Of a stretch of 51,034 nucleotides of DNA, positions 10,549 through 39,806 are shown in pieces. Origin of the DNA: a virus (taxonomy: Duplodnaviria > Caudoviricetes); IMG/VR virus record IMGVR_UViG_3300027278_000018, positions 1-51,034 of that record. The stretch is one strand, 5' to 3'. Every line of letters starts with the position of its first letter. Position 1 is the first letter of the stretch. The notes beneath the pieces were generated by a model. The model saw only the letters and a program-made list of their open reading frames with translations. It made no database searches and was not told the DNA's origin. A program made the translations under genes and the position numbers.

Positions 10549-10549
10549 G

Positions 10550-12267: not shown

Positions 12268-12294
12268 TGGGGCGGTGAAATATCCGCCCCATTT
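12268..12294 (+). terminator. Intrinsic terminator
   Basis: atggggcgg...ccgccccat hairpin after the stop. Confidence 0.75.
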
Positions 12295-12326
12295 ACATTT
12301 TATTAAACGAAGAGTATAATAGAATT

Positions 12327-12545
12327 ATGGAATCAAATAAAAAAAGTTTATATAAATCAATTACTTGGCCAGCAGTTCATATTGGATTTGTTGGCACGAT
12401 GGTCTATTTATTTGAAAAGGCTATAACTGGCGAAGCCCACTGGGAATACGCTGGCACATTTGCAATCATATACACAGCATGTGAAATGGTTGGCTTTTTC
12501 TTACATGAAAGAGCTTGGTCTAAATTTGGCGGGAAAATAAAATAA
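12327..12545 (+). CDS. DUF2061-like membrane protein (second copy)
   Basis: KSLYKSITW...FFLHERAW. Confidence 0.7.
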   Translation: MESNKKSLYKSITWPAVHIGFVGTMVYLFEKAITGEAHWEYAGTFAIIYTACEMVGFFLHERAWSKFGGKIK

Positions 12546-12837
12546 TGGGAAAGCACCTAGATAAAATGCAAAGAGCTCTTGCTCAAAGACAGGCTGGCAC
12601 ATACACAAGTGGACAAAAAAAGCCTGGATCAATGAATATTAAAAAAACTGGCTATAGGGGACAGAAAGCAAAGGGCTCTAAGTAGTGTTTGAAGATACTT
12701 GTCAGTGGTCTAAAGAATGTAGTAATAAAGCAACAAGAATTGCATCAAGAAAAGAAGGACCAATTATAGATATTTGTGACAAATGCTGGCATAAAGAGTT
12801 TAAGTCCTAATAAAAATAATATCAAGATTGGATAAAA

Positions 12838-13629: not shown

Positions 13630-13726
13630 TTCCTCCACCCGACGCATTCTAATCAACCAGATGATATACTTATCTGGTAGGTGGAACTCTAGAACCATCT
13701 AAATAAATGACCTATAGGAGAATAAA

Positions 13727-14459
13727 ATGACAACAAATGGAATTAATGGCGGAGGCTTTGAAGCCGCTACACCAGCAGGAACAAATGATATCAACGCACA
13801 CTACTCAGACAACACAGGATCAGCATTTCCTGTAACTGACAAGTCAACACAAGATGGTGCTGGCGTAGGACAGAGTGGTAAGTAATATGGAAAACATTAA
13901 AGCAGAAACACCAGCAGCTCCAGTTGCACCAGCAGCTCCAGTTGCACCAAAATCAGCAGTACCAGCTCCAGGAACACCTGAATTTGCTGCATGGGCATGG
14001 GAAAATAGAAACGGCTAATGTGTTACGAATGTGGATGTGAAACCCTAGGAAGCACTATGGGTGGAACGCAGGCAAACATTGTTGATGTTTCAAGAGATGG
14101 AGACTCAGGTTTGACATTAAGCATGAGCTCAACTCCAGAGCAGACAAGACAATTTATAAATGAGTAATTTTAAAAAAGAAAATGGTACTGGCATGGAAGC
14201 ACCACCAACTGGCGGTGCACCTGCTGGCGCTGTTACTAGCAGAGAAGCAACAAAGAAGCAGCCAAGACAAGGCATGAGGGTGGATACAAATAAACATGGT
14301 ATTAGAAGAGAAACAAGCCTGATACCTAAGCCACCTAAGAAAACTGGTAGAAAGAAGATCTAGCCGATGTGCATCAAGTGCGGTAGCTGTTATAAAGAAC
14401 ATGAGCGCACAATAGATGACGCAGTAGATTTTATTGAAGACTTGGATTATAAAAATTAG
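13727..14459 (+). CDS. Operon of five micro-ORFs (13727-13885, 13887-14018, 14018-14167, 14160-14363, 14367-14459)
   Basis: AGGAG RBS before 13727; abutting or overlapping start/stop codons. Confidence 0.6.
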
Positions 14460-14750
14460 AAAATTGCTAAATGGATCAACCGTCTTTGAATTAGATGAGG
14501 CGGTTGATCTAATTATACACACTAAAGCCCCAGGTAAATATAAGGTTATAGACCTAGAAACGGGCGAAGAGTATGTAGGCTCAGAGATTAAAAATGAAAG
14601 CTTTGCCCCAGTCTTAATAGAAAAAGTTAACAGGGGGAAAATCGGTCAATGGATTAAAATAAAAGCAAAACAATCTATTGACCAGGTCGAATAACTATTG
14701 TATAATAGGTAGTATACACAATGTATGCTATAAACAAAAGAAAGAATATT

Positions 14751-15326
14751 ATGAAAACAATCGGAGATAAACTCAATCAATTTTCAGTTGTTGGTGTTAA
14801 GCCAGCAAGACTTGATTATGCAGAAGATGCATTTGAAACCTTAACAGAAAAATCATTTCCTGGAAAATGGAAAGTAATTGTTTTTTACCCTAAAGACTTT
14901 ACGTTTGTTTGCCCAACAGAAATTGTTGCATACGACAAGCTATCAAAAGACTTTCATGACAGGGATGCAGTTCTTATGACTGGGTCTACAGATAATGAAT
15001 TTTGCAAAATTGCTTGGAGAAATGCACATAAAGACCTAGCTAAGACTAATTCCTGGTCTTTTGCAGATCAAATACGTGGATGGCAATGGAATGATCAGAC
15101 AGAAGAATCAACTGCTGGCCTAGCAGAACAACTTGGTATTTTAACACCACAAGGAGTTGCACTACGTGCTACATTTATTGTAGATCCAGAAAACATCATC
15201 CAGCATGTAACTGTAAATAACCTTGACGTCGGCAGAAACCCAGAAGAAACATTACGTATTCTAGATGCACTTCAAACAGGAGAGCTATGTGCATGCAATA
15301 GAACAATTGGTGGAGAAACTCTATAA
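14751..15326 (+). CDS. ahpC: Peroxiredoxin AhpC
   Basis: FYPKDFTFVCPTE, RATFIVDP, GRN...LCAC (actinobacterial type). Confidence 0.95.
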   Translation: MKTIGDKLNQFSVVGVKPARLDYAEDAFETLTEKSFPGKWKVIVFYPKDFTFVCPTEIVAYDKLSKDFHDRDAVLMTGSTDNEFCKIAWRNAHKDLAKTNSWSFADQIRGWQWNDQTEESTAGLAEQLGILTPQGVALRATFIVDPENIIQHVTVNNLDVGRNPEETLRILDALQTGELCACNRTIGGETL

Positions 15327-15838
15327 TGACTTGGGTAGACCAGCTTAAGGATTCTCTTCCAGAATATGCTAAAGACATCAAGCTAAACCTTGATGCAGTA
15401 ATTAATAGATCAACTATTGATTCAGAGCATGCCATGTATCTTTCTATCGCTGCAGCATTTGCAACTGGTAACGGTAAGCTTCTCGCCTTCATTACAGCAA
15501 GCGCAACAGATGATGTTGAAAGAAATGCAGCCCTTACTGCTGGTGCAATTATGGCACAAAATAACGTATGGTATCCATATATTGAGATGGCAGATGATCA
15601 AAATTTATCTGGGCTACCAGCACAGCTTAGAATGAATTCTATCGCTTCCCATGGGGGCACTACAAAAGCAAAGTTTGAAGCATATAGCCTTGCATCTTCT
15701 ATTATTGGTAAATGTCATTTCTGTGTAAAAGCACATTATGAAACGTTAAAGCAAGAAGGATATTCAACCGAGCAGCTGCGTGACATTGGCAGAATCGCAG
15801 CAACAATTAACGCTTTGTCAAAAATACTATCCGCTTAA
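15326..15838 (+). CDS. ahpD: Alkylhydroperoxidase AhpD
   Basis: LPEYAKDIKLNL, MAQNNVWY, CHFCVKAH; coupled to ahpC. Confidence 0.95.
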   Translation: MTWVDQLKDSLPEYAKDIKLNLDAVINRSTIDSEHAMYLSIAAAFATGNGKLLAFITASATDDVERNAALTAGAIMAQNNVWYPYIEMADDQNLSGLPAQLRMNSIASHGGTTKAKFEAYSLASSIIGKCHFCVKAHYETLKQEGYSTEQLRDIGRIAATINALSKILSA

Positions 15839-15886
15839 CCAAGAAATGGTATAATTGGGTAAATACATATTGAAAAGGGAGACATC

Positions 15887-16777
15887 ATGTCAGAAACACA
15901 GGTAGTCAGTCAGCTCGGAGGAAAGCTTCTCGGAGGAGGAGGAACTGGCATTTGGCAGTACGATAACTTTATATCTAAAGAAGAGTGTGAAGAGCTAATT
16001 AAATTTTTCAATGCTAATTCTGAAGAGTGGAGATACATTTGTTTTTATGGATCTTATGGTATGCACGTAGTTTCTCCTTTTGATAAAGAGCATGGAACTA
16101 CAATAACAGAAGAATATATGGCAAACCTTCGTGCAAGAATGGTTCAATATGTTTCTGATGCCGCGGGGCGTCCGATGAAAATTAACAGCATGCATGCACA
16201 AAAATGGGAACTTGGAGCTTATGCAAATGACCATTCGGATAGCTCAGATCTAGATGGAAATGATATGGGCTGGAGTGACAACAAACAGTACGCTGGTATC
16301 TACCTTAATTCTCAACCAGATTACAGTGGCGGAGTTTTAAAGTTTAGAGATCATGGTTTAGATGTTATTCCTCCTGCTGGCTCATTTGTTTCATTCCCAG
16401 GCGGACCAGAAAACATCCATAGCGTTACAGAAATAACTGGCGGAACAAGATATACTATTGTTATTTTCTGGGACTATGCTGACGCATGGTATTCAGAAGC
16501 AGAGCTACAAGAAATGGAACGAATGATTCTTAAAGAAAGAATTCATCAGTACCAGCTTAAGAGACAATGGGCTCTAGGAGAAGCTCACCCATTGCTAGAA
16601 GATCCTTATGCAGGTCTAGATGATGATTCAAAGTTACCAGAAGGATTTAAAGAAAGCTTGACTATCGGAGACATGAAATCAAATGCCCGTAGAAATCAAG
16701 AGAACGCAGTAAAAGAAGGCCGCGTCCCAGAGGGAGTGGTAAATGACATGATAATATCACAGGAGGAAGAAGTATGA
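15887..16777 (+). CDS. 2OG-Fe(II) oxygenase
   Basis: HSD, YLN...YSGGVL, HSVTEITGGTRY. Confidence 0.9.
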   Translation: MSETQVVSQLGGKLLGGGGTGIWQYDNFISKEECEELIKFFNANSEEWRYICFYGSYGMHVVSPFDKEHGTTITEEYMANLRARMVQYVSDAAGRPMKINSMHAQKWELGAYANDHSDSSDLDGNDMGWSDNKQYAGIYLNSQPDYSGGVLKFRDHGLDVIPPAGSFVSFPGGPENIHSVTEITGGTRYTIVIFWDYADAWYSEAELQEMERMILKERIHQYQLKRQWALGEAHPLLEDPYAGLDDDSKLPEGFKESLTIGDMKSNARRNQENAVKEGRVPEGVVNDMIISQEEEV

Positions 16778-17028
16778 TTACAAAAGCAGGTTCATCAGGA
16801 ATTGACTCAGAAGGTGTAGCATATGATCACGCCTTTACAATAGAAATTGGAAGAGTTTCATATACATTATGCGGAGAAGATAAATATCAGGTTACGCTTA
16901 ATCTTAACTCGTCAGAGGGTCATGAAGAGATCGCACCAGAAATTCGCACAATGTCTTATGATGATTTGAATAATTGGTTCCTAAACCCAACACCAGAGTA
17001 CTACAATACAACTATAAAAAATAGCTAA
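16774..17028 (+). CDS. Hypothetical protein
   Basis: GGAGG RBS; coupled. Confidence 0.6.
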   Translation: MITKAGSSGIDSEGVAYDHAFTIEIGRVSYTLCGEDKYQVTLNLNSSEGHEEIAPEIRTMSYDDLNNWFLNPTPEYYNTTIKNS

Positions 17029-17038
17029 GGAGTAGTCC

Positions 17039-17851
17039 TTGAAACAGCTTTATTTTTTGCATATACCAAAAACTGCAGGAAAATTTGTAGGAAAATGTGT
17101 GCGTGATTCTTTATCTGAAACAGATTTAAGGATATATATAAGCACACACTATCCAAATGAATTTAATGTTTTTGATAAAGCTTATGTTTCTGGTCATTTT
17201 GGTACTTACCCTATTGAAAAAAATCCATCAATGGATGTAGCATGTCTGCTAAGAAATCCAATAGATGCAAGGGTTAGCTACTTTAATTTTATTTATAAAT
17301 ATCAAATGGTAGGCAGACCAGAATACGATGCCATTTATACTTATTTAGATAAACTTAAATATTATTTATTTAATGATCCCAATTATGCACTTCATAATAA
17401 CTATCAAGCAAGATTTATATGCAACCCTGCAGATGAAAAGTCTTTTAGCTTAAAAGGATTTTATGAAAATTATGGGGATGACTTAATGAAAGAGATTGGT
17501 TTTCATGAGGGTAAAGCATTTACTTGGTTTGTAGGGAATGATAAAACTTCTTTAGATTTAGCAATGAGTAATGTCAAATCATTTAATATTGTAAATACTG
17601 CTGAACGTTTGGACCTATTTATGGATAAAGTAAATAGATGGTTTATTGAGAATTATAATATAGAGATAGATTATAACCTATTAAATAAGGTAAATACCTC
17701 CTCAACAGAATACAAGGGAGTTGTATATACAACTAAAGATTTGATAGATATGCTCACAACAGATGAAAAAGAGTTGATTGTAAAGAATAATTATATTGAT
17801 TATGCAATATATTCTTATGTTAGTGGCAAAGAGTTGTTAGGGGATAACTGA
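17039..17851 (+). CDS. Sulfotransferase family protein
   Basis: FLHIPKTAG (5'-PSB) and LRNPIDARVSYF (3'-PB). Confidence 0.85.
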   Translation: MKQLYFLHIPKTAGKFVGKCVRDSLSETDLRIYISTHYPNEFNVFDKAYVSGHFGTYPIEKNPSMDVACLLRNPIDARVSYFNFIYKYQMVGRPEYDAIYTYLDKLKYYLFNDPNYALHNNYQARFICNPADEKSFSLKGFYENYGDDLMKEIGFHEGKAFTWFVGNDKTSLDLAMSNVKSFNIVNTAERLDLFMDKVNRWFIENYNIEIDYNLLNKVNTSSTEYKGVVYTTKDLIDMLTTDEKELIVKNNYIDYAIYSYVSGKELLGDN

Positions 17852-17854
17852 GCA

Positions 17855-19000
17855 ATGATAAATAAAGCAGATAAAAATTATAATTTTATATACTTTAAAG
17901 AGTTTAATATAGAATTAATAAAAGAAAAGTGTATCGCATTAAAAGAGGAGTGGCTACTAGACCAGTCGAGGCAAAATATGCAGTACCCAGAAAGAAGAAA
18001 TCCTCATCTTTATACAAATACATACATTGTTCAAGACCACCATTTATTTTGGCAAAATGGTGAAAAGTTTTTACCCACACTGAAAGATCCAGAAATATAT
18101 GAATTAGTAATGCCAATTATAAAAGAATTACAAGAAAGAATTTGTGGTAAAGCTGCTAGAGTACTGCTAATTAAACTTGAAGGTAATAAAAATGTAACAG
18201 AGCATACCGACTCAGGAGATTATCTTAATACAGTAAGAAGATTTCATATACCAATAATAACTAATGATAAGGTTTATTACACTGTAAATGGTGAAAAGAT
18301 TCACATGAAGGCTGGGGAGTGTTGGGAGATAAACAATAGAAAGCCACACTCGGTAGATAATGATAGCGATGAAGAAAGAATACATTTGCTTATAGACATA
18401 ATGCCAGAATCAGAATTTAGAACATACGACTCCTTGTTACCTGAATCTAAGATTAAAGTAATAGAAAACTTTATATCAGAAGAGGACGCACAATCATTCA
18501 TTGATTATATAAACAACAACTATTTAAATAATTATAAATTTACAATAGGTAAAAAGGCTTTAGCTGCAGGCAATCTCAGGTATCAATCCAATGTCCCAGA
18601 AGAGTTCGCTTTATCAGATCATGAAGAAATGAGTGATCTTATTAAAAAATATAGCGATAAATTTTTAAATGAATGCTATAATTTTTTTAAAGATGATTTT
18701 GAATTATACCTAACTGCGTTTTGGATGACAAGGTTTGAAAAAAATACAAAGCTGCCATTTCATAACGACAATCATGAGGGCGCTGAGCACCTTTTTAGAA
18801 GTGGTGTAATATACTTAAACGATGATTATGATGGCGGTTACCTAAAGTTTTTAGACCATAGCTTAACCTATAAGCCAAAAAGACTGAGCCTAGTTATATT
18901 TGATTCAGAGTATATGCATGAGATAACAAATATTGTATCTGGTGCTAGAATGGCACTACCTATATGGGCAACAAAGAATCCAAAAAAATGCATACTTTAA
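17855..19000 (+). CDS. Asp/Asn beta-hydroxylase-like domain fused to a P4H-like 2OG-Fe(II) domain
   Basis: HTD...RFHIPIITN...PHSVDN...RIHLLID; second domain HND...YLNDDYDGG...HEI...R. Confidence 0.85.
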   Translation: MINKADKNYNFIYFKEFNIELIKEKCIALKEEWLLDQSRQNMQYPERRNPHLYTNTYIVQDHHLFWQNGEKFLPTLKDPEIYELVMPIIKELQERICGKAARVLLIKLEGNKNVTEHTDSGDYLNTVRRFHIPIITNDKVYYTVNGEKIHMKAGECWEINNRKPHSVDNDSDEERIHLLIDIMPESEFRTYDSLLPESKIKVIENFISEEDAQSFIDYINNNYLNNYKFTIGKKALAAGNLRYQSNVPEEFALSDHEEMSDLIKKYSDKFLNECYNFFKDDFELYLTAFWMTRFEKNTKLPFHNDNHEGAEHLFRSGVIYLNDDYDGGYLKFLDHSLTYKPKRLSLVIFDSEYMHEITNIVSGARMALPIWATKNPKKCIL

Positions 19001-22285: not shown

Positions 22286-22516
22286 ATGAAAATAGAGTTA
22301 AGTGCCTTTTGTGTTCATTGTAATGAAAGCGTAAAAGGAAGGTTAACCGAGATGGTTGTCTTAGATTCAGGTAATTGGTTACACATAGGAGAGTGCCCAG
22401 TTTGCTATCTTGAAATTAAGCGAATTGTCCCCAAGGACAGTTCAGGTTCCTATAATGGTCGTAGAGCAGTTTCCGAAACTGATAATGAAGGTCCGATTCC
22501 TTCACCTGAAGCTTGA
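22286..22516 (+). CDS. Small Zn-ribbon protein
   Basis: FCVHC...GECPVC. Confidence 0.6.
   Translation: MKIELSAFCVHCNESVKGRLTEMVVLDSGNWLHIGECPVCYLEIKRIVPKDSSGSYNGRRAVSETDNEGPIPSPEA
22441..22511 (+). tRNA. Atypical tRNA-Arg(CCG)
   Basis: Acceptor TTCAGGT/ACCTGAA, anticodon arm cagt-ttCCGaa-actg, T stem gaagg/ccttc with non-canonical loop TCCGATT. Confidence 0.65.
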
Positions 22517-26589: not shown

Positions 26590-26685
26590 TTTCCGCCTTT
26601 CGTTAACTGTCTATTATACCAAAATGAAGCAGGGCTGGCAATGCCCACGGATCCCACCGCTATCGCCAGCCCCACACTTGGGTCC

Positions 26686-27657: not shown

Positions 27658-27866
27658 TATTCATACCTTTCGCTAGTAGAGTTCATTATATCAGTTGCCA
27701 CTGACAATAAATGTTCGGTTGCATCAATTGCTCCCATATAGAATGAATCTGATTCCCAGTATTCATCCTCATTTAAAGGTTCATTGTTTCTTGCATCCTC
27801 TAAGTCCTGGTTAAGACTAATTAAATGAATCTTCATATATTCCAGGAATTGAGATGACTTAGTCAA
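27657..27866 (-). CDS. Hypothetical protein (contains an internal TGTCAG-N10-TATAAT promoter)
   Basis: GGAGG RBS; TTG start. Confidence 0.6.
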   Translation of the reverse strand: MTKSSQFLEYMKIHLISLNQDLEDARNNEPLNEDEYWESDSFYMGAIDATEHLLSVATDIMNSTSERYE

Positions 27867-28144
27867 AATAGCCCTCCGCCCATAATCCTTCTAAGAAACT
27901 AGATACTTCTTCTAATCCCTTGGAAATGCCTGAATTGCCTAATTGTTTACAAGCAATATTAATAGTGGCAAGCATCATATTTATATCAGATATTTCGTAA
28001 CCTAACATTCTATTGCCTCCATATATTTAACCATAGTGTTTAATGTTATATGAATGTGACAATCACAATCATCAGATGTGTCTCTGTCATCAAAATGAAT
28101 TAAGTTGTCATCATAGATATAATTAATTAGTTCCTGTGTAGTAA

Positions 28145-28357
28145 TCATAAGCAGTATTCGTCTCCCTCAATATAGCCATAATATTCATTGTATGATTGTT
28201 TTAAGTTATCAGGAGCAAATGACATGAATTGCCATTCCGCATAATCGCTACCCTCATCTAAATTTTTACTGTTCCATTGTTCAAATAGGTGTTGCTCAAT
28301 ATCTACTTGAATTGCTCCAAGGATATGTTCTCCTACTGTATCTGTAAATGCTTCCAT
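28145..28357 (-). CDS. Hypothetical protein
   Basis: Coupled ORF. Confidence 0.6.
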   Translation of the reverse strand: MEAFTDTVGEHILGAIQVDIEQHLFEQWNSKNLDEGSDYAEWQFMSFAPDNLKQSYNEYYGYIEGDEYCL

Positions 28358-29094
28358 TATGCTTCCGCCTTTCTATATTCGGGTACTTTAGTGTCTAAGT
28401 ATATCTTATGGGTCTGACAAATTGCTACAGCCTCTAGGTCTGCCTCGCCAAGCCAGTGGCAATTGCCACAGATTTCGCCACAGTCATTTTCTTCACAGTA
28501 TTCCATTTGGTTAATGGCATCACAATCACGACATTGGTTGTCGTATTCTGATTCTGAGATAATTTCTCCACGAAGCATCTCTAACTCCCCACCCCAACCT
28601 GTTTCTTCTTCATAAGATAAAGTCATAAGTAAATTAGGGTATTGTGCAGATAGTTTAAGCAAAGCATTTATTGGACGAGACCAAGCAGTATTAAAGTTAT
28701 AATGGACTACATAGTTCTCGCCATTTTCTGCTTCCTCGATAGTTGTATCAGGATAAAGATTATCTTCTGATACGGCTACATCCCATTTAGTGCTCCACTC
28801 ACGGACATTAAAGTTATACCAGTCATTGGTCTCAAACTTCATTGCCTCAGAAAAATCGGTGGAACGAGGAGGTTGTCCATGATATACCTCATCAGTAATA
28901 CCAGCATCTCTATAGTTATAGATATTATGAAAAGCAAAGATAGGATTAACATACTTAGTCTGCTTAACATCATATGATAAATCACCTACTGCAGTAATAG
29001 AATAAACGAATGGCTTATTCATCTGCTTGATTAAAGATTTTACTTGCTCAGGATTACCTTCTATAGTTAATCCATTAAATACCCAATTTGGCAT
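28357..29094 (-). CDS. DUF1281/Api92-like (YubB ferredoxin-like) protein
   Basis: MPNWVFNGLTIEG, WYNFNVREWSTKWD, FNTAWSRP, LSYEEE. Confidence 0.8.
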   Translation of the reverse strand: MPNWVFNGLTIEGNPEQVKSLIKQMNKPFVYSITAVGDLSYDVKQTKYVNPIFAFHNIYNYRDAGITDEVYHGQPPRSTDFSEAMKFETNDWYNFNVREWSTKWDVAVSEDNLYPDTTIEEAENGENYVVHYNFNTAWSRPINALLKLSAQYPNLLMTLSYEEETGWGGELEMLRGEIISESEYDNQCRDCDAINQMEYCEENDCGEICGNCHWLGEADLEAVAICQTHKIYLDTKVPEYRKAEA

Positions 29095-29269
29095 TTTATA
29101 TCCTTTCGTTGATATGTTCTAATTATAGACTAGACCACTGACAAATGGAATAGATTTGCCATGTGATACATGCCACATGATTCAGCTTTGTGGTCAAGAT
29201 CACAGAAATTCAGGCGATTTTATATTGACGTCGTAAACAAATTATAATACCCTCAGCCTTTGTGGGCAA

Positions 29270-29416
29270 ATAGAAACCCCCAGCTAAAAGCTGGGGGGTA
29301 TGAATATGGCTGCTGATTTCCAACGAAAGAAATAAACCGCTTTACTTAGCGCCTGGCCCGCAGACTAGTTAGACGCACCATTTCATTTCTATATTAAAAC
29401 CAGGACCAAGGTCCTA
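29270..29416 (-). ncRNA. Candidate ~145-nt sRNA with its own -10 and intrinsic terminator
   Basis: TATAAT at 29423-29428, 5' hairpin AGGACC/GGTCCT, no credible ORF, terminator CCCCCAGCT-TTT-AGCTGGGGG-TTTCT. Confidence 0.55.
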
Positions 29417-29423
29417 GGTCCAA

Positions 29424-29789
29424 TTATACCATAACTAGTCGACTGTATTTATCTACGAATTTATCAATTGGCAGCGAGAAGACTACCTGAGATAGGTCCT
29501 CTTCATACAGTGTAAATGTTTTCTTAGACCAATCAATCACAGGCACCTTGTGCTCGTTGTCCCCAATATGATTAATATAAAGACCCCAGCCTGTTTCTGA
29601 TTCCCATTCCTGTGCAACCAATTGAGATATGCATATACGTGTAGCATATGCCTCATCCGTCCACCGTGGTTCTGCTTTTGCTACTGCAGTGGCCAAGTGG
29701 TGCAGCATCTCTGAGCCCGCCCAATGTCCATATAGATATAATGTTTCGCCCTTAGAATCTCTGAATCCAAAGTTTGCTCTATTTCCCAT
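29424..29789 (-). CDS. Hypothetical phage protein
   Basis: MGNRANFGF...LYLYGHWAG. Confidence 0.7.
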   Translation of the reverse strand: MGNRANFGFRDSKGETLYLYGHWAGSEMLHHLATAVAKAEPRWTDEAYATRICISQLVAQEWESETGWGLYINHIGDNEHKVPVIDWSKKTFTLYEEDLSQVVFSLPIDKFVDKYSRLVMV

Positions 29790-29790
29790 T

Positions 29791-29979
29791 TTATTCCGCC
29801 GTTTCTAATTGTTGTTCTTTTTCGTAGTTGAGTAATTGTACCATTTCATGGGCCCAGTCCACAAGAGACTCGCCCTGTTTGTTTTTATGATGTCCGCAAA
29901 AATAAAGGGACATTGCATCTTTCTTTGCTTCCCACATAGCTTGCGCTGCACATTGATCACACTTAAGCCATTCAGCCAT
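29791..29979 (-). CDS. Small Zn-finger protein
   Basis: CDQC...LYFCGHH. Confidence 0.7.
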   Translation of the reverse strand: MAEWLKCDQCAAQAMWEAKKDAMSLYFCGHHKNKQGESLVDWAHEMVQLLNYEKEQQLETAE

Positions 29980-30124
29980 CATAGGTTTCCACCTTCAATC
30001 ATTTCTGAAAGACGGTCAAGGATCCAAGAATCGATGTCGGCGATATCAATCTCTGATAATTTCTCCATCAGTTCTTCACGAGCAAACTTATACCCGTCTT
30101 GAAAACCATCTTTATAATCTGACA

Positions 30125-30337
30125 TTACTTCTCCTTATATCCTGTCGCTTCTCTGTCTGACCAGTAACTTTCAGTTAAGTTATACTTGTCACGAATGCGA
30201 CTTACCTTCTCAATACTACCAGTTCCGATGTTGAAAGTCAACGGTCCACATTGTTCAGGGTCTAATCCAAGCAACTCTGCTTCCCAAGTAGCCCTCGCAA
30301 AGGCTACTTGAGTAGGAGCGGTAAGTTCAAAGTACAT
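30125..30337 (-). CDS. Hypothetical protein
   Basis: Coupled start at 30337. Confidence 0.6.
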   Translation of the reverse strand: MYFELTAPTQVAFARATWEAELLGLDPEQCGPLTFNIGTGSIEKVSRIRDKYNLTESYWSDREATGYKEK

Positions 30338-30999
30338 TAGCACTCACGCACATTACATACTTCGGTGTCATCAATTGTGATGTTACCGTTATTTGAATCA
30401 GCATAAAGAGCATCTGTAACTTCTGACTCAAGGTCCATATCATAGTCATTTTCAAGAATATTGAATGAATATGTTCCGCTAACTTCAACAGATGCAGTAA
30501 ACTGAACTTCTTTGATTAGTTCAATTGAAAGCGCTTCAGCAATTTCACGAAGTGTATCTTGGTCACCTGAATCAGCATATGCCTCGCAGATAATTTCTTT
30601 GACTGCATCAATCTGAGATAGCAGAGTAGTTACACGCTTCTGTGATTGACGTCCATTATGTAAATCCCACTCGATAGATGCAACCTTATCAGTTGCATAT
30701 TCTGCATCTGAATAACCACGGATTACTTTGTAGGTAACCAATAGGTTGGAGTTATATGTATCGGGAACTGTTACTGCAGGTGTTGTTGTATCTTCCATTT
30801 TTTCCTCTTTCGTTGTTGTTGGTGCAATTGTAGCATGCTCCACTGACAATAAGGTTGTCTTACGGCCACATGGACATGTGAGTTCTGTCACACCTGATGG
30901 GAATCCAAATCCATCTGATGATGTTAATTCAATTAGACAATCACATTCATCTGGGTCACAGACAAATGTATATTTACTTGATACTAGTTCGTTGGTCAT
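30337..30999 (-). CDS. Hypothetical protein with N-terminal Cys domain and a second in-frame start at 30798
   Basis: Leaderless ATG at 30999; internal promoter and AACGAAAGAGG RBS before 30798. Confidence 0.65.
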   Translation of the reverse strand: MTNELVSSKYTFVCDPDECDCLIELTSSDGFGFPSGVTELTCPCGRKTTLLSVEHATIAPTTTKEEKMEDTTTPAVTVPDTYNSNLLVTYKVIRGYSDAEYATDKVASIEWDLHNGRQSQKRVTTLLSQIDAVKEIICEAYADSGDQDTLREIAEALSIELIKEVQFTASVEVSGTYSFNILENDYDMDLESEVTDALYADSNNGNITIDDTEVCNVREC

Positions 31000-31101
31000 G
31001 AAGAGAATTATACACGAGGCCACTGACATTTACAAGGGATTCCAGGAAAATTTTTTGTGACTCGTAACACATTTTTAACCCCCTTACCTTTGAGGGCGGT
31101 G

Positions 31102-31175
31102 CGATCTGTAACGGACTTGAACCGTCGACCTCTACCGTGACAGGGTAGCGCTCTAACCAACTGAGCTAACAGACC
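31102..31175 (-). tRNA. tRNA-Asp(GTC)
   Basis: GGTCTGT/ACAGATC acceptor, ctacc-ctGTCac-ggtag, TTCAAGT T loop. Confidence 0.95.
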
Positions 31176-31185
31176 AATAAAAAAT

Positions 31186-31210
31186 GTGAGCAGTTTTAAA
31201 TCTTGCTCAG
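31186..31210 (-). terminator. Hairpin terminator after the DUF932 gene; related copy at 32714-32737
   Basis: CTGAGCAAG...CTGCTCA followed by T run on - strand. Confidence 0.6.
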
Positions 31211-31222
31211 GATTTTATTTAT

Positions 31223-32227
31223 TTAGAAAGCAGAAACCAATTTCTTGATTTTGTTTTTCTCAGCGGTAAGAACTGGGTCAAACCCTGATGCACCTGCCAT
31301 AAGAGTTTCACCATTTCCACGTCCTGAACGATAATAATCTAAACGCTCAGTAAGTGCATTAAACGCACCCCACTTTGTGCCTTTGATATTGGCATTGGTT
31401 GGTGAGTTGTGATACAAATCATCAAGCAGGACAACTTTGTTTTCCCACTTCTTAATTGCACCCTTAGCATCTTTTTCAGGCTTTGGATAAATTGACTGAA
31501 TCAACTTTGAGAATTCAGCATCAGTAATAGATTGCTCGAACATTGCTTTTGCTTCGATTTCAAATTCATCAAAGTAACCAAGAGCAAGCCCAAGAGTTTC
31601 ACGAGCAACTTGAATGCGACCTTCAACAGATTGCGTGTGGCGAATCTTGAAAGATTGCTTTGCATTACGCATTGCAAGATTCAAAGTGTTTTGGCATACA
31701 ACACGAACAGGAGTAACCGCTGCTTGAACAGCAACAGACCCGTCATGAGATGTCCATACGATTAGATACAACTTTGTTGCATCATTAGCACCTTGTGGGT
31801 CAAGCACCATTGTGCGAGGAATATCAACTGTACCGAATACAACTTTGCCCTGCTTAAGAGAGCCAGCAGATTCCCAACGACAATCAGCATTAGCATCATG
31901 AATAGCATCAGCGAATGCAAATAATTCTTCATTCTGCACTGGCTTGTAACGCTTTCCAACTGTTGCAAGAACATCTGTTCCCTTGTTGAATGGGTTGTCA
32001 CGAATTACAAGAGATGCGGTAGATACATCATTCCAAGATTCTGGAATATGCTCAGTGATTGGAGATAGACGAACATTCCAATTAGCCAACTTTGCTTCTT
32101 CAAGCATTGTCTGTGTAGTTACTTCCTCATCTTGTGTAAAGATTCGGTTAGCAAGATTGTGCCATGCAGGTGCACCACGAAGAGCAAAAGCAACTTCGCC
32201 GTTTTCCATTTCTAGATTATGAGCCAT
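31223..32227 (-). CDS. DUF932 family phage/plasmid protein
   Basis: AWHNLA, YKPVQNEELF, ESAGSL, SHDGS, PVRVVCQNTL, IRHT, GTKWGAFNA; start MAHNLE with GAAAGG RBS. Confidence 0.9.
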   Translation of the reverse strand: MAHNLEMENGEVAFALRGAPAWHNLANRIFTQDEEVTTQTMLEEAKLANWNVRLSPITEHIPESWNDVSTASLVIRDNPFNKGTDVLATVGKRYKPVQNEELFAFADAIHDANADCRWESAGSLKQGKVVFGTVDIPRTMVLDPQGANDATKLYLIVWTSHDGSVAVQAAVTPVRVVCQNTLNLAMRNAKQSFKIRHTQSVEGRIQVARETLGLALGYFDEFEIEAKAMFEQSITDAEFSKLIQSIYPKPEKDAKGAIKKWENKVVLLDDLYHNSPTNANIKGTKWGAFNALTERLDYYRSGRGNGETLMAGASGFDPVLTAEKNKIKKLVSAF

Positions 32228-32417
32228 GAATTTATTTCCTTTCGATTGGTTATTGTTGTAAGTATAACAGGTGCCACTGACATTGTCTAGATTAAACACT
32301 CATTTGTCCAAATTGTGACATGTGATCATTCTCACAAAATTCCAGGGTTATCCACAAGTACTCGTAAGCCTGTGGATAACCCCTCACCTTTGGGGGCAGA
32401 ACTGGGAGATCCCAGCT

Positions 32418-32681
32418 CTACTCTAGTTTAAAGCTTATACGTGCAGCGCTTTGAATTTTGCTTTTTAGTTTGTGCACAGTGTCTTCATCAAAAAACATTG
32501 CTGTTATCTTTTTCTTTTTCTGTGCGTCATAAGCATAAGCATTAACACGTCCGCTGAATTGTTTGATGTTACTAATTACTAATTCAGTTAAATATTCTTT
32601 ATCGACTCCGCTATCTGAATAGATAGTTAAATCATTTAACTTGTTTGCGTCATAAATTTCTACACGAAAACGATTTTTCAT
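32418..32681 (-). CDS. Hypothetical protein
   Basis: AAAGG RBS. Confidence 0.6.
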   Translation of the reverse strand: MKNRFRVEIYDANKLNDLTIYSDSGVDKEYLTELVISNIKQFSGRVNAYAYDAQKKKKITAMFFDEDTVHKLKSKIQSAARISFKLE

Positions 32682-32751
32682 TTTATTGCCTTTGTTAGTA
32701 GTTACACCGAAGTGTGAGCAGTTTGGCGACTTACTCAGGTCGTTGGTTTAT

Positions 32752-33174
32752 TTAGAGATAACGAGCAACCGCTTGATAAGTTGATGTGGAAACTGTTTCC
32801 TCATCTGTCATCTGCAAGATACGGATTGCGTTAGAGATTTCCTCTTTCTGCTCACGATAGTTGTAGATAGAGATTTGCTCAAAATCCTTGATAGGCTCTT
32901 TAGGCAAGTCCTTCTCTGATACTGTGAGGTCGAAGTCAATGTTTAACTGATTATTCCAAGAACGGAAGTTAGTGCGGAAGTTTTCTGCCTTCTTGATGTT
33001 TGCTACTGCATAATCAACAAGTTCCTTCTGCCAAGCCTTACGAGCCTTTTCATACTTTGCTTCGTTGGCTTCTTGTGATGTGTAGTCAAGTTCTAGTTTT
33101 GCTAGTGCGCCTTCTAGTGCCTTGATTACCTTTGGTGTTGCAATTTTAACTGAGATTGCTTTGCTTCTAGCCAT
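32752..33174 (-). CDS. Hypothetical protein
   Basis: AACGAAAGAGG RBS, own promoter and terminator. Confidence 0.75.
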   Translation of the reverse strand: MARSKAISVKIATPKVIKALEGALAKLELDYTSQEANEAKYEKARKAWQKELVDYAVANIKKAENFRTNFRSWNNQLNIDFDLTVSEKDLPKEPIKDFEQISIYNYREQKEEISNAIRILQMTDEETVSTSTYQAVARYL

Positions 33175-33266
33175 GTGTTTCCTCTTTCGTTAGGTGGGTT
33201 AGTGGTTTATTAAGTTGTAAGTATAGCAGAGGGGTCTGACATTTCTGCGACCCCCCTGCTTTTAGG

Positions 33267-33449
33267 CTATGCGCCTAATAGTGCCTTAGCAGATACCGAA
33301 GTCCAACGAGTTTCCTTTGTTGGCATTTCTAGTAGCACACGCACCGAGCCAGATGCCTGTGGGTGGATTTCTTTAATCACACCTGTTTTCTTTGACTTTA
33401 GTGTGGTGAATAAATCGCCCACCTGATAGAGATGATTATCTATTGTCAT
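33267..33449 (-). CDS. Small SH3/KOW-like beta protein
   Basis: YQVGDLF...GVIKEI...VRVLL. Confidence 0.6.
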   Translation of the reverse strand: MTIDNHLYQVGDLFTTLKSKKTGVIKEIHPQASGSVRVLLEMPTKETRWTSVSAKALLGA

Positions 33450-33545
33450 TTATTGCCTCTTTTCTTTGTTAGGTTAGTAGTATAGCATTGGGGTCTGACA
33501 TTAGTCTAGCCCTATCTCATTATTTGAGAATGTTATTATGTGACC

Positions 33546-33812
33546 TTAGTCACTTTCAGGTAGCCAAGCGTGGAGATGGTGCTGGTCTATAATTGCGTGA
33601 GCGGGTGCGTGGGTGCTTCCTCGATACGATACGCCTTCGGGCATTTCGATCAATTTATCATAGTCCTCGTCATAGTATGCGTCAATAGCCTCGATACATG
33701 GTTCGACCATAGATAATGGAACGGGCGGGTAATGATTACTCTGTAGATGAATAGAAATAGCCATTTCTAAATCTAACTCAGTAGATAAATCTAGTGCTGT
33801 ATTGTATCCCAT
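33546..33812 (-). CDS. Hypothetical protein
   Basis: HLQSNHYPPVP; coupled. Confidence 0.7.
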   Translation of the reverse strand: MGYNTALDLSTELDLEMAISIHLQSNHYPPVPLSMVEPCIEAIDAYYDEDYDKLIEMPEGVSYRGSTHAPAHAIIDQHHLHAWLPESD

Positions 33813-34015
33813 TAGTTAGCCACCTTTAGAATTGCATAAGTACCATTTTTATTTATTTCATCAAGGATAGGACCTAAGCGAGAGCCTACCAATTCTTTTA
33901 GCATTCCTTCAAGCATTTGCACACGCATTGACTCGTCAAGCATTTGCATTTGGTGAGTAACTGGATGGCCTTCTGCAAACTCAGTTATGAACTTTAGACT
34001 ATGTTCTACTATCAT
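33812..34015 (-). CDS. Hypothetical protein
   Basis: AACGAAAGG RBS. Confidence 0.65.
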   Translation of the reverse strand: MIVEHSLKFITEFAEGHPVTHQMQMLDESMRVQMLEGMLKELVGSRLGPILDEINKNGTYAILKVAN

Positions 34016-34082
34016 TTTTTGCCTTTCGTTGTTGGTATAAGAGTATTATAGCGTATAGCACTGACATTACCTAATCCATTCT

Positions 34083-37000
34083 CGGCGTGTCGCAGCTTTT
34101 GTGATAATACTCACATTTCCAGGGGTTGTGGATAACTTACTTAAAGCTGTGGATAACCCCTCTCTTTTGGGGGCGGAGCCCTAAAAGGATTTTAGGACTG
34201 CCCATATTGCTATAGGTATTGGTAATACAAGTACACTGCATAGTATAAATCCAATCACGGTACCAATTAATTCTGCCATTATTTTTTACTCGCAGAAAAT
34301 CTAATGTCGGCTTTTCCGTAAACGCAGAGACCGCAAGAAACGCATGCGGATCCATTACTAGAGATAAGTGGAATACTTTTCATATTCTCAGGGCATTTAG
34401 CGCCAGGCTTGCCAGTCAATTCTTTCATTGTGTCTTCAGTTGCAGCGAATGTCTTTCCCAAATAGGCCAGGCGGACCTTGGAATTAGTTTTCAAATCGAA
34501 TGCTATTTCTTTATTTTCATCATCCGTGGAATAGTACAGTGAAAGATTAGTAACATCTTTTAGAATAAGCGCTGCAGACTTTACTCGTGTATAAACCCAA
34601 AATTGAACATCAGGATGATTAGAAATAATTACTTTCCATGCGTATGTATAAATATCATTAAAGAAATCTCCGTCCCAGTGTATACGGAATAATTTAGGGG
34701 CGCCTTTCTTTTCACAATCAGCAATAAATTCAACAATCATCTCATCTAATAGAATAAGCATTGTATCCATATCGGCATTGCGTAGCAATTCCCAATTGTG
34801 TAGCAGATTAGTTTTTACTCCAGGGAATAACTTTTCGAGTTTTCCTGCGTAGCAAACGCTTTCACAAATACTAGTGGCACCAGGGCACGAGTAAGCCTTT
34901 CCAGCAGGTAATCCGAAAGTGTTAGCAATTGCGGCTTGCTTTCCATTTTTTGTGACAAGGTTAGCCACCTTTCTATCGTTAGAGCGTTTCAATTTCATAG
35001 GGGTAATTATAGCGGTTAGGTCTGACATATTAGTAATCCTCATCCATACCGTGGCCAGCGGAAGCAAGGGCGTCGGAGTCGGCCCAGCCAGTTAGTTCAT
35101 AGAATTCCATTTCCTCAGACGCATAGCATTCAGCGCAGGTATAGTCATCACCATAGACTTCATAATCTTCATCAGAATAGAAAATTTCTTGAGCCCCGCA
35201 AATTTCATAGTTAAGACAAGCAACAGTAAATTGTTCCATTAGTAGCACTCTCCACATACTGGGTAATAGTATTCCCCGTCGTCGGTTACAAATTGGGTAG
35301 TTTCTTGGTCGCATGCGATACAGTTGTTCATAATTGAACCTTTCGTTGGTTGAATGGCAAGTATAGCAGAATATACTGACAAAAACTAATCGACACGCCG
35401 CATTTTCAGGAGCTTTTTAAAATGTGTCGTAATTCACATTTGGACCCCTCTCCTTTAGGGGCCGCCCTTACATTATTCTAGATCAATTTTCTTTTTGTGT
35501 TTTATTTTTCTAAAATACTTTTTTTTATTGCGTACAGGTTGCGCCGCATTACTGCGACGCAATTCCTGAATACGCTTTACTTTATCTCGAAGTGAATTTT
35601 GGGACATGATACCCACTCGCTTCATGAAATCTGCTTACATCAAATCGCTCATTATCTTTCGCAAACATCTCTGCGAAATCATTTACAATTTTAGAAAATA
35701 AGGCAGGGTGAGTTTTATCGCTGGCATACTTTAAGATTTCAGCGGTTGCCACATAGTCTTTGCGAGTCATCATTTTGTTACGACCTTTCGACCTTCACGA
35801 TAAAAAGTTTTTGTATACATTTTGCCAGTTGGCATTTGTAAATTTACAGTTGAGTATTCATTAGCAAATCCCCAATCGGTGAACGCTAAAAAATCGGTGA
35901 ACGCTTCTAAAGCGTCTACATAGTTTTTATTCCAGTGGATAGGCTGGCTATCATAGGCTAAAGTAATCTGGTACATAGTTTCCCTTTCGTTAGTTAAAAA
36001 ATAAATCTTGTTCTTTGCCGAAATCGCAATCGCAAGTTTCGACATCGAAATCATTTTCGTTTCCGAAAAAAATTAAACCTGTTGAGTTACACTCTGAGCA
36101 ATCTATTCGCATTACTGAGTTAATCACGCTTCACACTCACATTCTTTTGAGTAATCAAATTCGCAGAAATAGCAACCCATTTGTTCGCCGTGTGCTTTAC
36201 ACACATAAATAAATTGGCTTTCATCACAATGAAATTTCATTTCATCTTTAATAAAATAAAACTCGTTTTCATCTAAATAATTTTTAATCATTTAGTCACC
36301 TACCTTTACGGCAACGGCTCGGTAAGTAGTATTTCCAAACCATTTTGATTTTCCGCTAGTTGTAGAATAAACAGGGCGTACCTCTACACGATACGCTTCC
36401 GCGCCGTCATAGTGTAGGCAGGCTGGGTGTTTTTCTGCTGAGATAATCTCTCCCTCTACTGAGCGAGAGCGGTACATTTTGCCGATAAGTAAATCTTCGA
36501 CAGTATAGACATTTGCTGACATTAGTTGTCACCTTTCGTTTGTTGATAGTAGCAATTATAGCCTATGGGTCTGACATTTTCACATTACTAGCCAGTAATT
36601 CCACATAATAAGACGCTCAAGTCGTGTGATAAAGGTCACATAAAAATGTCCGTTTTGTCTGTCAAATCGACACGCCGTAAAATTCCAGGGTTTTTATAAC
36701 TCTTTCATAACGACACGCCCGACCCCGTGCCTTTGCGGGCGGATCAACTTTGTCAAGTCGACACGCCGCTAGTTATTGAAAATCTTTTAGAATTTCATCT
36801 AGCTGATTTATTTGCTCATCGTTAAGATGATCTAATTGAATTGTTTTTTCAAATCCAAATAAGTCGCTCATTCATTTTCCATTTCTGCTAGATAATCCTC
36901 GTGTTCAATAAGCCCAATTGAAAATGCGATAGGGTCGCAACATTCCAAAATCTCGGCGGGAGTAAAAGTTGAATAACCAATTTTTACAGTTGGATAAACA

Positions 37001-38313
37001 TCATTTAGTAAATCAATAAAACTTTCTTTGATTTCTAAATCAATTTCAAATTGCGATTTCATCTGCAACCTCTTTCCATTCAAAACAATAAGAATCTGAA
37101 ACAAAAGTATTTTTCACAACGCTATCAAATAAAGATAACGCTTGATTTTCGTCCTCTGCGTCTATGTCTAACCAAACGCCGAATGTGTATTTTTTCATTT
37201 ATTTATTCTCGCAATTCTCGTGTCGTGTTTTTGGCGCAAGGACTACTTGCCCGCATACGCATTCATTCATTAGCCCGCTAGGGTAATCTCTTACAGTTGC
37301 GAATGTTGTCCAATTACTAGCCATTATTCAAACGCCCCTTCATTTAGTAATCCTAATTCAATGTTGAATAATTCATCGGGTGTTGCCTCGGATAAATCTA
37401 CCCAGCCAGCACCCTCATCATCTATGCGAAAGATTTCTACATAACCCATTTATTCTGCCTCCTTAGTATTGAATAGAGAGGACATCTTATCATTAGCCTC
37501 TGACATTGTTGCGATAGCCTTTAATAGGCTAGCCTTGCGTTGCGCCTCAACGTGCGCCTTGTATTCTTCAAGTGTCATTTTAACGACCTTTCGTTGTTGT
37601 TATAGTAGGAATTATAGCAGAGGGGACTGACATTTACCACACGACACGCCGTATTTTGATAAATCTTTTTTTGTGATAAACATCACAAAATTCAAGGGTT
37701 TTCCACAGACATACGTAAGTTATCCACAGCCCCCACACTTCGTAGGGGCAGCTATCGCCCATGTCAAGGCGACACGCCGTTAGCCTAGTGTGAGTTATCC
37801 CACTCTCTAAAATCGGCTACGATCTCACGCCACATCATGCGCCCCATGTATAGGGCGGGTACTAGAAGGGCTATCTGTACTAGTGTAGTTATTAGTCTAT
37901 TCATTAGTTATCCCAACTTAGTGCGAATACTTTTGCTAGTTCTTCATCATCTACATCATCAAAGTCATCTAGTGGAGGTTGTTCTTCATCTACCTCATCT
38001 AGGTATGCGTATGCGTCTGATACAGACGATTGGATAGACTCGTATTTGTCTATGCTATTTGTAGCGTATGAGTATGCGTATGACATTAGTTCTGTTCTAC
38101 CTTTCGCATGTGTGCTACAACATTTTTAGAAACCTTTTGCAGGTCTGCTACGACCTTATTCATTTCGTCTGCGCTCTTAGCGGTGAACCCTGCGCCTAGT
38201 AGTTGAGCGCCGTCCCATAGTGAGTATGTGATAGTCATTATCTGTTATTCTTTCGTTAGTAGTTATAGTGGAATTGTAGCGTATAGGGCTGACATTATCA
38301 AGCCGACACGCCG
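34083..38313. promoter_or_regulatory. CGACACGCCG motif (WhiA-type GACAC core), 8 copies
   Basis: 35391, 36668, 36711, 36759, 37642, 37770, 38304; inverted copy at 34083. Confidence 0.75.
34279..34998 (-). CDS. GP88-family (mycobacteriophage gene 88-like, Fe-S/radical-SAM-like) protein
   Basis: FGLPAG...SCPGATSICESVCYA, FRIHWDGDF, FWVYTR, CVSCGLC; leaderless start at 34998. Confidence 0.8.
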   Translation of the reverse strand: MKLKRSNDRKVANLVTKNGKQAAIANTFGLPAGKAYSCPGATSICESVCYAGKLEKLFPGVKTNLLHNWELLRNADMDTMLILLDEMIVEFIADCEKKGAPKLFRIHWDGDFFNDIYTYAWKVIISNHPDVQFWVYTRVKSAALILKDVTNLSLYYSTDDENKEIAFDLKTNSKVRLAYLGKTFAATEDTMKELTGKPGAKCPENMKSIPLISSNGSACVSCGLCVYGKADIRFSASKK

Positions 38314-38536
38314 TATAGCGAGAGGGTTAGGGTGTGAGTTACCTCACACGCCATTCTGTCCACATAGGCAGACGCTCAGGGTCAGTATCATCATACCAAC
38401 GCTCTATGTTCTGCTCGCAATCTTGGCAGAAAGTGTATTGAGTATCCAACACCTCTGAGATAGCAGACTTCATAGGGTTGTGCTCTCGGCACATTGTGTT
38501 TAGTGTAATCATTTGACTACCTTTCTTGTTAATCAC
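35030..38536 (-). CDS. Run of small (30-80 aa) hypothetical early genes, e.g. 35030-35239, 35239-35331, 35582-35773, 35770-35976, 36292-36522, 37904-38086, 38339-38512
   Basis: AACGAAAGG-type RBS or start/stop coupling; units begin at TGTCAG-N10-TANNNT promoters. Confidence 0.6.
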
Positions 38537-38942
38537 CTTGATTAACTCTTATGTCTTAAGACTATCATGGGGGTCTGACAAATTTCAACTCGCAAAACGG
38601 ACATTAGGGACAAATTAAAAAAATAGTTAGTGAGATAGGTCACATTTAGGCATGTATGTGCGGTCTATCTAGACAAAACGGACATTAAAATAGTGTGTAT
38701 CGTACAAGATAAAAATATATTAACATTTTCTGAAATCTGAAAAAGCTTGACATCGAAAATATAAATAGTATAATTTTTCTAGGGGGGTCGGGGGGTCAGT
38801 AAATCAATAAATAATAAATATTAAATATATAGTAAGACCTAAGACCTAAGATCAAGTGATACAACCAAAAAAAATATTTTATTAACATTTTACTATATTC
38901 AAAATAATAGTCAACTAGAATAATACTGATATAATTAATCAT

Positions 38943-39731: not shown

Positions 39732-39806
39732 GGGGATATAGCTTAATTTGGTTAAAGCACTTGTCTTATATACAATAGATTCTGGGTTCAAATCCCAGTA
39801 TCCCTA
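39732..39806 (+). tRNA. tRNA-Ile(TAT)
   Basis: GGGGATA/TATCCCT acceptor, ttgt-ctTATat-acaa, ctggg-TTCAAAT-cccag. Confidence 0.85.

Follow-up and report, generated by a model that had tools for sequence, protein, structure and literature searches.

A conserved, uncatalogued RNA fold in uncultured freshwater phages carries a loop complementary to the predicted leaders of a small-gene block

The DNA considered here (the window) is the whole of the IMG/VR record IMGVR_UViG_3300027278_000018, which is 51,034 nt long and 44% complete. A compact element is present in it as one copy. Read on the minus strand, it has an extended -10 promoter, TG-G-TATAAT (29431-29423), then a hairpin and a folded core, and behind these a terminator-like hairpin (29297-29277). 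A sequence-only reading of this DNA had earlier proposed a small RNA here, with its own TATAAT, a 5' hairpin, internal stems, a strong terminator and no credible ORF. Most of these parts are indeed present. The TATAAT lies at 29428-29423 with a TG extension, the 5' hairpin at 29417-29400, and the terminator-like hairpin is followed by a U tract; no ORF of at least 40 aa is contained in the element, and only frames of 5-11 codons were seen by eye. The proposed pairing stretch UUUAUUUCUUUCGUUGG was also located at 29336-29320. Out of the two internal stems, GCGUCU/AGGCGC was recovered. The other, AGAAAUGAA/UUUAUUUCU, is not in the minimum free energy fold, and at least eight of its nine pairs are possible in only 3 of 38 representative homologues. 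It was rejected; the conserved outer stem is instead AUGAAAUGGU paired with GCCAUAUUCAU. The parts of the element and its surroundings are as follows.

29439-29444, minus strand: AGTCGA, a GTC-triplet element that keeps the PafBC-type -26 register, with 10 nt between it and the -10 hexamer; within the last codons of the upstream ORF
29423-29431, minus strand: extended -10, TG-G-TATAAT, overlapping the stop codon of the ORF at 29424-29789; predicted start near 29416
29400-29417, minus strand: 5' hairpin P1, variable; some homologues are without it
29377-29386, minus strand: 5' strand of P2, with an invariant GGU at its end
29349-29376, minus strand: P3 arm, with GCGUCU/AGGCGC, an asymmetric internal loop and a GUC-tetraloop-GGC tip; the portion common with Streptomyces BE phages
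29341-29348, minus strand: junction linker J3/4, UAAGUAAA, conserved; also able to pair with the U-rich part of the P4 loop, on its 5' side
29312-29340, minus strand: P4 hairpin with covarying pairs, bearing the seed loop
29322-29329, minus strand: seed CUUUCGUU, perfectly complementary to the leader tag AACGAAAG and invariant in the alignment; UUCGUU is the apical hexaloop
29300-29311, minus strand: J4/2 adenine and 3' strand of P2, with an invariant GCC
29270-29297, minus strand: intrinsic-terminator-like hairpin and U tract, also the end of an operon starting at 30848
29424-29789, minus strand: 121-aa ORF of unassigned function, no Pfam match; always directly upstream of the RNA across the freshwater family

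Homologues were collected from IMG/VR by pattern and protein-anchored scans, which gave 87 distinct cores, each just 3' of a homologue of the 121-aa ORF. For the fold, 38 representatives less than 93% alike were aligned after the removal of one chance match. Their consensus is a three-way junction, in which P2 (with the GGU end and the GCC start), P3, an eight-base linker and P4 follow one another. In this alignment, 93.7% of the cells at the consensus pairs are paired, as against 79.0% after shuffling, and the covariation is 0.399 against 0.134. Related sequences can beat a shuffle, and the weight therefore rests on the slid-alignment controls, where covariation reached 0.112 at most, and on the pair types. 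Changes on both sides are seen at 9 of 18 pairs. In P2, 4 of 7 pairs have changed on both sides (87% of cells paired), and in P4, 3 of 5 (95.7% paired), while P3 is paired in 99.6% of cells and has two pairs with 4-5 pair types. Thus, the stems covary in relatives, with compensatory changes in three helices. P1 reaches -3 kcal/mol or lower in 65 of the 76 homologues having a -10. The window sequence taken alone gives a folding z-score of -3.2 for the whole element and -0.64 for the core.

The strand of the RNA can be told from the pair types. Read on the minus strand, the paired positions hold 58 G-U against 7 A-C combinations, and this excess points to the minus strand as the RNA strand. A plus-strand RNA offering the tag as a decoy was ruled out by the same bias together with the orientation of promoter and terminator. 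Many bases of the junction are unpaired and yet invariant. A possible partner for the linker UAAGUAAA is the U-rich stretch on the 5' side of the seed loop (29336-29330), with at least 6 of 7 pairs in 35 of 38 representatives (shuffled mean 15.8, maximum 25). This pairing is a perfect 8 of 8 in one clade, and one clear compensatory case was seen, with little compensatory change overall; it is possibly a pseudoknot or a switch.

A resemblance to SRP-like or riboswitch-like RNAs was noted by eye, with no match in Rfam. The element matches none of the Rfam 15 models, including those for SRP, riboswitches, ribozymes, tRNA-like RNAs and Ms1, and the window element has no direct blastn match among 50,697 phage records. 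Cellular homologues were likewise discarded, as the seven matches of a genome scan comprised three on 3-kb phage-like contigs in unrelated bins and four due to chance. Comparative sequence evidence thus identifies the element as a real, conserved RNA fold absent from Rfam.

The tip of P3 is variable or deleted among homologues, and the loop of P4 is the sole conserved loop. It holds the seed CUUUCGUU, which is present in 135 of 135 homologues among 138 protein-anchored loci, whose neighbour proteins are 46-100% identical. The seed was not used to find these loci, which are redundant and hold 50 distinct cores; 133 of the homologues passed a filter and two (L517 and L556) were recognised by inspection. 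Among the remaining three loci, L012 and L553 are without the RNA and one is cut. A seed-free scan of 120 loci similarly found the seed in 98 of 99 structure-passing matches, the other 21 loci having failed the structure filter (four of those are seeded homologues). The sole variant seed differs by a single base and comes from a short locus without leaders (L304/L503). The seed is invariant while the P4 stem and the flanks of the loop vary. It is also predicted to be mostly exposed, with a mean unpaired probability of 0.64-0.88 for six of its eight bases; the first two are mostly paired. The seed is therefore neither unconserved nor, by prediction, fully buried. UUCG in the seed loop fits the YUNR pattern of antisense recognition loops.

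The complement of the seed, AACGAAAG, occurs 11 times in the window, as against 1.27 expected and a maximum of 4 in 100 shuffles. Ten copies are on the minus strand at 26.6-38.3 kb, each 7-11 nt before an ATG, which bears out the earlier statement that the complement precedes at least ten genes. The sole plus-strand copy is the element itself, so that a minus-strand RNA bears the complement CUUUCGUU at 29329-29322. The predicted target leaders, including two near-matches, are these.

26597-26604, minus strand: predicted tag AACGAAAG, behind a sigma-A-type promoter, not TGTCAG
27667-27674, minus strand: near-match tag AGCGAAAG, pairing through G-U; second-best predicted binder
29103-29110, minus strand: predicted tag AACGAAAG, exact copy
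30807-30814, minus strand: predicted tag AACGAAAG, heading the operon with the RNA in its 3' end
32231-32249, minus strand: DUF932 leader with near-match tag AUCGAAAG; 17-nt pairing with two bulges
33184-33191, minus strand: predicted tag AACGAAAG, exact copy
34023-34030, minus strand: predicted tag AACGAAAG, exact copy
35340-35347, minus strand: predicted tag AACGAAAG, in a 10-nt match CCAACGAAAG
35984-35991, minus strand: predicted tag AACGAAAG, before an internal cistron with no adjacent TGTCAG promoter
36533-36540, minus strand: predicted tag AACGAAAG, weakest predicted binding (-1.8 kcal/mol)
37588-37595, minus strand: predicted tag AACGAAAG, exact copy
38250-38257, minus strand: predicted tag AACGAAAG, exact copy

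The tag is thus found before 10 (12 with the two near-matches) of at least 32 minus-strand ORFs in the small-gene block, or about one third. When the P4 hairpin was co-folded with 52 start regions, the eight best predicted binders were all in the block. The mean predicted binding is -8.7 kcal/mol for the exact-tag leaders and -3.7 kcal/mol for 30 plus-strand genes, a comparison that is partly circular. The bulged pairing with the DUF932 leader, which had been proposed from the sequence alone, is predicted at -13.5 kcal/mol.

Similarly, the arrangement is repeated in relatives. In 70 non-redundant loci (17 of the 87 cores were dropped for a length below 9 kb, fewer than 4 tags, or redundancy), 682 of 695 same-strand tags have an ATG or GTG 3-14 nt downstream, and 70 of the 74 opposite-strand copies are the RNA. 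Five of the records are 97-100% complete; of their 55 early-strand tags, 53 fall within a single block of 7-12 kb per record, and each block has one inverted copy. The block is probably expressed early. The term ‘early’ is used because the best cultured matches of the DUF932 gene are gene 2-5 of Streptomyces BE phages, inside terminal repeats, which are about 11 kb long according to PMC5764925. The host would be actinobacterial, as judged partly from the same matches.

The base next to the seed was also compared with the base next to the tag. Where C adjoins the seed, G adjoins the tag in 92% of leaders, and where U or A adjoins it, in 69-70%. On a tree of four concatenated proteins, in which all loci of the count were kept, the values are 183/193 for a basal C-type group, 33/42 for five C-type phages nested among the A/U types, and 310/447 for the A/U types. 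This co-variation is essentially one clade contrast; it agrees with pairing and is suggestive, not phylogenetically independent. The searches turned up no lineage in which seed and tag had changed together; CUUUC(A/C/G)AU seeds were scanned for in metagenomes, with 3 matches, all due to chance. The two distant relatives in which the homologue of the 121-aa gene is not followed by the RNA, L553 (with AUCGAAAG leaders) and L012, gave no match in a model search either; it is a weak blank, as the same search missed the homologue of phage EGole described below. As a separate observation, the leaders in these two read ATCGAAAGG and, with GGCAGGTTTGTC promoters, GAAAGGGG.

It could be asked whether the inverted tag is just left over from a former ribosome site, or is a site for a protein on the DNA, with no function as RNA. 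The unremarkable folding of the window core alone is in line with this, as are the metatranscriptome contigs, which also cover the presumably silent stretch beside the element. Nevertheless, compensatory changes in three helices and the G-U bias on one strand speak for an RNA, the seed is fixed in a loop across phages whose neighbour protein is down to 46% identical, and no start codon lies 3' of the inverted copy. A relic, which the sequence-only reading had itself named as a way to fail, is already largely refuted by these features and is hardly credible.

The signals for expression are conserved to different degrees. TAYAAT precedes 76 of the 87 unique cores, with the TG extension in 65, and the -10 is retained where the upstream ORF ends elsewhere (for example, in L049 and L053). 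A terminator was called in 68 of the 87 and is absent in much of one clade. Thus, a -10 is missing in 11 cores and a terminator in up to 19, about three of which are miscalls. In the clade where promoter and terminator are largely missing, the 3' end of an operon would include the RNA or release it by cleavage. In the window, the operon that begins with the tagged 30798 leader also has the RNA at its end. Contigs from eight metatranscriptome runs, which carry no information on ends or strand, cover the element in at least five, and in several studies; the presumably silent stretch 29110-29270 is also covered in two of the runs, X5 and X6.

The promoter of the element had been described as not of the TGTCAG class. 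This stands insofar as none of the 76 homologue promoters has TGTCRG; however, AGTCGA-N10-TATAAT in the window keeps a GTC triplet in the register of the early promoters. A GTC in the PafBC register is seen in 33 of 76 homologues and at none of 11 plus-strand TGnTAYAAT sites in the window. The triplet is within coding sequence, and the register match is therefore suggestive only. Among the early promoters, TGTCR-N10-TANNNT precedes 626 of 682 tagged leaders, with a spacer of 10 in 619 of the 626 promoters of the relatives, and GTC is at the same offset in 624 of 627. They match, in sequence and spacing, the PafBC (RecA-NDp) motif tGTCgg(N10)tA(N3)T with its conserved GTC triplet (PMC8635444). 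In the window, 17 promoters of the form TGTCAG-N10-TANNNT are on the minus strand at 27685-38580 (18 matches in the window, 0.87 expected); 8 of the 17 lead to an exact tag and two to near-matches. The tag is about 10-30 nt from the predicted transcription start.

Related junctions were found beyond the freshwater family. Starting from the model's best match in EGole, a weak one, an element without annotation was recognised in the terminal repeats of the cluster BE phages of Streptomyces, in 83 records. It lies on the minus strand at about 740-850 (744-842 in EGole, L574, with equivalents in L576-L584 and L593), in both terminal repeats, in EGole, Jay2Jay, LukeCage, Karimac and others. With the RNA of the L557 type, blastn matched the BE element at 90% over 40 nt (E 2e-4), and 30 of 32 matched records were Streptomyces phages. 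Ten BE copies have the P2-P3-linker-P4 junction of the freshwater RNA, with 8 of 23 pairs compensatory. The promoter is of sigma-A type, TTGACA-17-TANNNT. The element is annotated as nothing, or is overlapped by doubtful ORFs, and in the literature searched it was not found described as an RNA.

The P4 of the BE element is short, with the loop A(A/U)GGUCGG, in which GGUCGG is invariant, and it has no freshwater seed. Instead, an invariant unpaired CCUUUCAAU with the CUUUC motif lies in the tail, 3' of P2, and, with one mismatch, would complement the AUCGAAAGG stretch with which 1-4 early leaders in each repeat begin. In the BE early blocks, the perfect complement of the tail (ATTGAAAG) shows no enrichment. 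It was also observed that BE early transcripts starting with AUCGAAAGGG (L574-L584, 2.9-8.0 kb) have a GC-rich hairpin between the tag and a second ribosome site. Two large actinophage-like contigs have the junction core with an unrelated P4 loop and no seed, and AACGAAAGG leaders are present in the first of them.

L649, 9985-10065, plus strand: junction core, unrelated P4 loop, no seed
L595, 9955-10045, minus strand: junction core, unrelated P4 loop, no seed

In phage DSL-LC01, 34 forward ACGAAAG sites were counted with no match to the RNA model (in the same search that missed EGole), and a tag without a detected RNA means that the tag does not need the RNA. About 20 small genes of this phage (L575, OQ999401.1, 24-43 kb; also L687:229) have ACGAAAGGAC leaders and a CTAAAG-N5-TATAAT promoter class. 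It has one same-strand CTTTCGTTG, intergenic at 4279, with no obvious junction. Taken together, the patterns in the BE phages, L595, L649 and DSL-LC01 suggest that the tag is a general strong actinophage leader, that the junction is older than the seed, and that the freshwater family fixed the loop against its own tag.

The conservation of the core from freshwater to Streptomyces BE phages, and in L595 and L649 with unrelated P4 loops, raises the question of whether the junction has a job of its own. It might bind a phage or host protein, block a 5' exonuclease, or act at the adjacent conserved DNA, the seed being a later and modest addition. The many invariant unpaired junction bases would fit such a role, and so would a similar block of DNA downstream, 3' of the RNA, in both the freshwater and BE groups. 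On the other hand, the freshwater seed is as invariant as the junction even though the stems and flanks of its loop vary freely, and the BE phages retain an invariant unpaired CCUUUCAAU, one mismatch away from complementing their AUCGAAAGG leaders. This explanation is thus fairly unlikely. In the window, the conserved DNA past the terminator (29150-29270) comprises a GCCCRCA...TGAGGGTA inverted repeat, TTTACGA, CCCTGAAATT and a TGTGG...ATCACA palindrome; TTTACGA and AATTTCCC motifs are also present 3' of the RNA at the ends of BE phages.

The reading that we favour, with a confidence a shade above even, is that a trans-acting RNA covers the Shine-Dalgarno sequence of about ten tagged mRNAs and damps the first, probably early, wave of expression. 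The RNA would be transcribed from its own extended -10 promoter and also as the 3' end of the 30848 operon. It would thus build up while its targets are made, as a delayed negative loop. Pairing would begin at the UUCGUU hexaloop; once the weak upper part of P4 had opened, the duplex would grow through the U-rich 5' side across the A-rich spacer in the direction of the AUG and reach 8-17 bp. The 16S rRNA tail would presumably form about 6 bp with a tagged leader. The duplex would block ribosome loading and so end the pulse of first-wave proteins. The junction may serve as a scaffold, older than the seed, for stability or protein binding. If a related phage superinfects, its copies of these genes would be silenced by the same pairing. 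It had been claimed that a single RNA shuts off the early regulon. A trans-acting RNA is in keeping with the covarying minus-strand fold, the invariant, mostly unpaired seed, the one inverted tag copy per phage and the position of the tag 5-12 nt ahead of start codons; ‘shut off’, however, is overstated, since the tag is on only about a third of the ORFs of the block and the same core without the loop is present in other actinophages.

The pairing could also raise output rather than lower it, if the RNA shields the nearby 5' end from degradation or delivers the leader to a helper protein or the ribosome. The closeness of the tag to the predicted transcription start and the likely co-expression of the RNA with its targets would suit such an effect, and phage sRNAs are able to promote phage development by way of targets in the host (PMC12197685). 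Activation is, however, very unlikely. The duplex covers the GAAAG Shine-Dalgarno core and the spacer, the leaders are unstructured and so offer no inhibitory hairpin to open, and in DSL-LC01 and L649, which use the tag, the seeded RNA was not found.

A further suggestion is that the RNA is mainly directed at mRNAs of the host, or at related phages entering the cell, with a GAAAGG-type ribosome site, and that self-complementarity follows from the copying of a strong host leader. ACGAAAGG leaders are also found in an actinophage with unrelated promoters, which suggests a general strong actinobacterial leader, and the c4 RNA is known to give immunity against superinfection (PMC5320573). Nevertheless, the tag is confined to the phage's own block, the RNA is inside that block in all members of the family, and an RNA against the strongest leaders of the phage would affect them regardless of any other target. 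Foreign transcripts as the main targets are, therefore, distinctly unlikely.

The damping of the phage's own tagged leaders can be compared with known systems, as far as the cited sources describe them. In the c4 RNA of phages P1 and P7 (Rfam RF01695), loops occlude ribosome-binding sites (PMC5320573, PMC2864571). The element resembles it as a phage-encoded RNA of three helices, one loop of which would pair in trans with ribosome-binding regions in phage mRNAs, and possibly in its origin from a longer transcript. Unlike c4, which has two targeting loops (a' and b'), acts on one immunity operon and controls lysogeny, it has one seed loop, about ten scattered targets with one tag, and an apparently lytic actinophage as its setting. 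The Rfam C4 model did not match the element at the gathering score, nor among five matches up to E 10. The GGW 5' end, a feature of c4 processing by RNase P, has a counterpart in the invariant GGU, but the pairing of P2 runs four covarying pairs outside it.

In Staphylococcus aureus, the UCCC motif of RsaE blocks initiation (PMC2790875). The likeness here is that one conserved motif, left unpaired, complements the ribosome sites of many mRNAs, in an Hfq-independent Gram-positive setting. In contrast to RsaE, the element is viral, its seed reaches beyond the Shine-Dalgarno sequence into the phage tag (AAC), and the genes it would target belong to the phage itself; neither sequence nor Rfam similarity was seen between the two. 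The T4 protein RegB inactivates early mRNAs through a shared Shine-Dalgarno motif and also acts on its own transcript (PMC3014915). A post-transcriptional shut-down of many early mRNAs through a motif common to their translation-initiation regions, as proposed here, would be like the action of RegB and RegA. These are proteins, whereas recognition here would be by RNA base pairing with no nuclease identified. Also related is the BE element, with its P2-P3-linker-P4 junction, a P3 and linker 90% identical to the L557 type, and a place in the early terminal-repeat block; it differs from the freshwater RNA in having the CUUUC motif in the 3' tail and not in the P4 loop, and few near-complementary leaders (1-4 per repeat).

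No description of this RNA was found in the literature searched. The searchable supplements of PMC10690425 are without its motifs, though the RNA may be among the candidates in the alignment archives of that study, and a 2025 review of phage sRNAs (PMC12197685) names none like it in the parts available. Judged by its fold and predicted pairing, it is an uncatalogued RNA, probably of the anti-Shine-Dalgarno type, outside C4 and every Rfam family.

A bolder proposal is that the junction is a retargetable guide scaffold across large actinophages. The fixed core would recruit a protein (a nuclease or a ribosome-associated factor). A single-stranded seed, which can be exchanged and is placed in the freshwater phages in the P4 loop and in the BE phages in the 3' tail, would address a barcode common to the leaders of a whole gene class, making the scaffold an RNA-guided counterpart of RegB that times the early-to-middle switch. 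We regard this as unlikely. To our knowledge, the turn-off of the first genes of lytic phages is understood for few models, and there it is by proteins (T4 RegB and RegA). If the damping of the tagged leaders is true, a single RNA of the phage, acting on the tag that about ten of the phage's leaders share, would be an RNA solution to early-gene turn-off. The setting is an abundant family of uncultured freshwater phages that is otherwise metagenome-only, and the BE homologue, in more than 80 cultured Streptomyces phage records, makes the fold testable at the bench.

Apart from the element, four tRNA genes are present in the window (5997-6069, 22441-22511, 31102-31175 and 39732-39806), out of which the one at 31102-31175 is inside the small-gene block and on its strand. 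A gene cluster at 754-19000 encodes a 2OG-Fe(II) oxygenase, an Asp/Asn hydroxylase, a luciferase-like monooxygenase, an APS-kinase-like protein and a subtilase.
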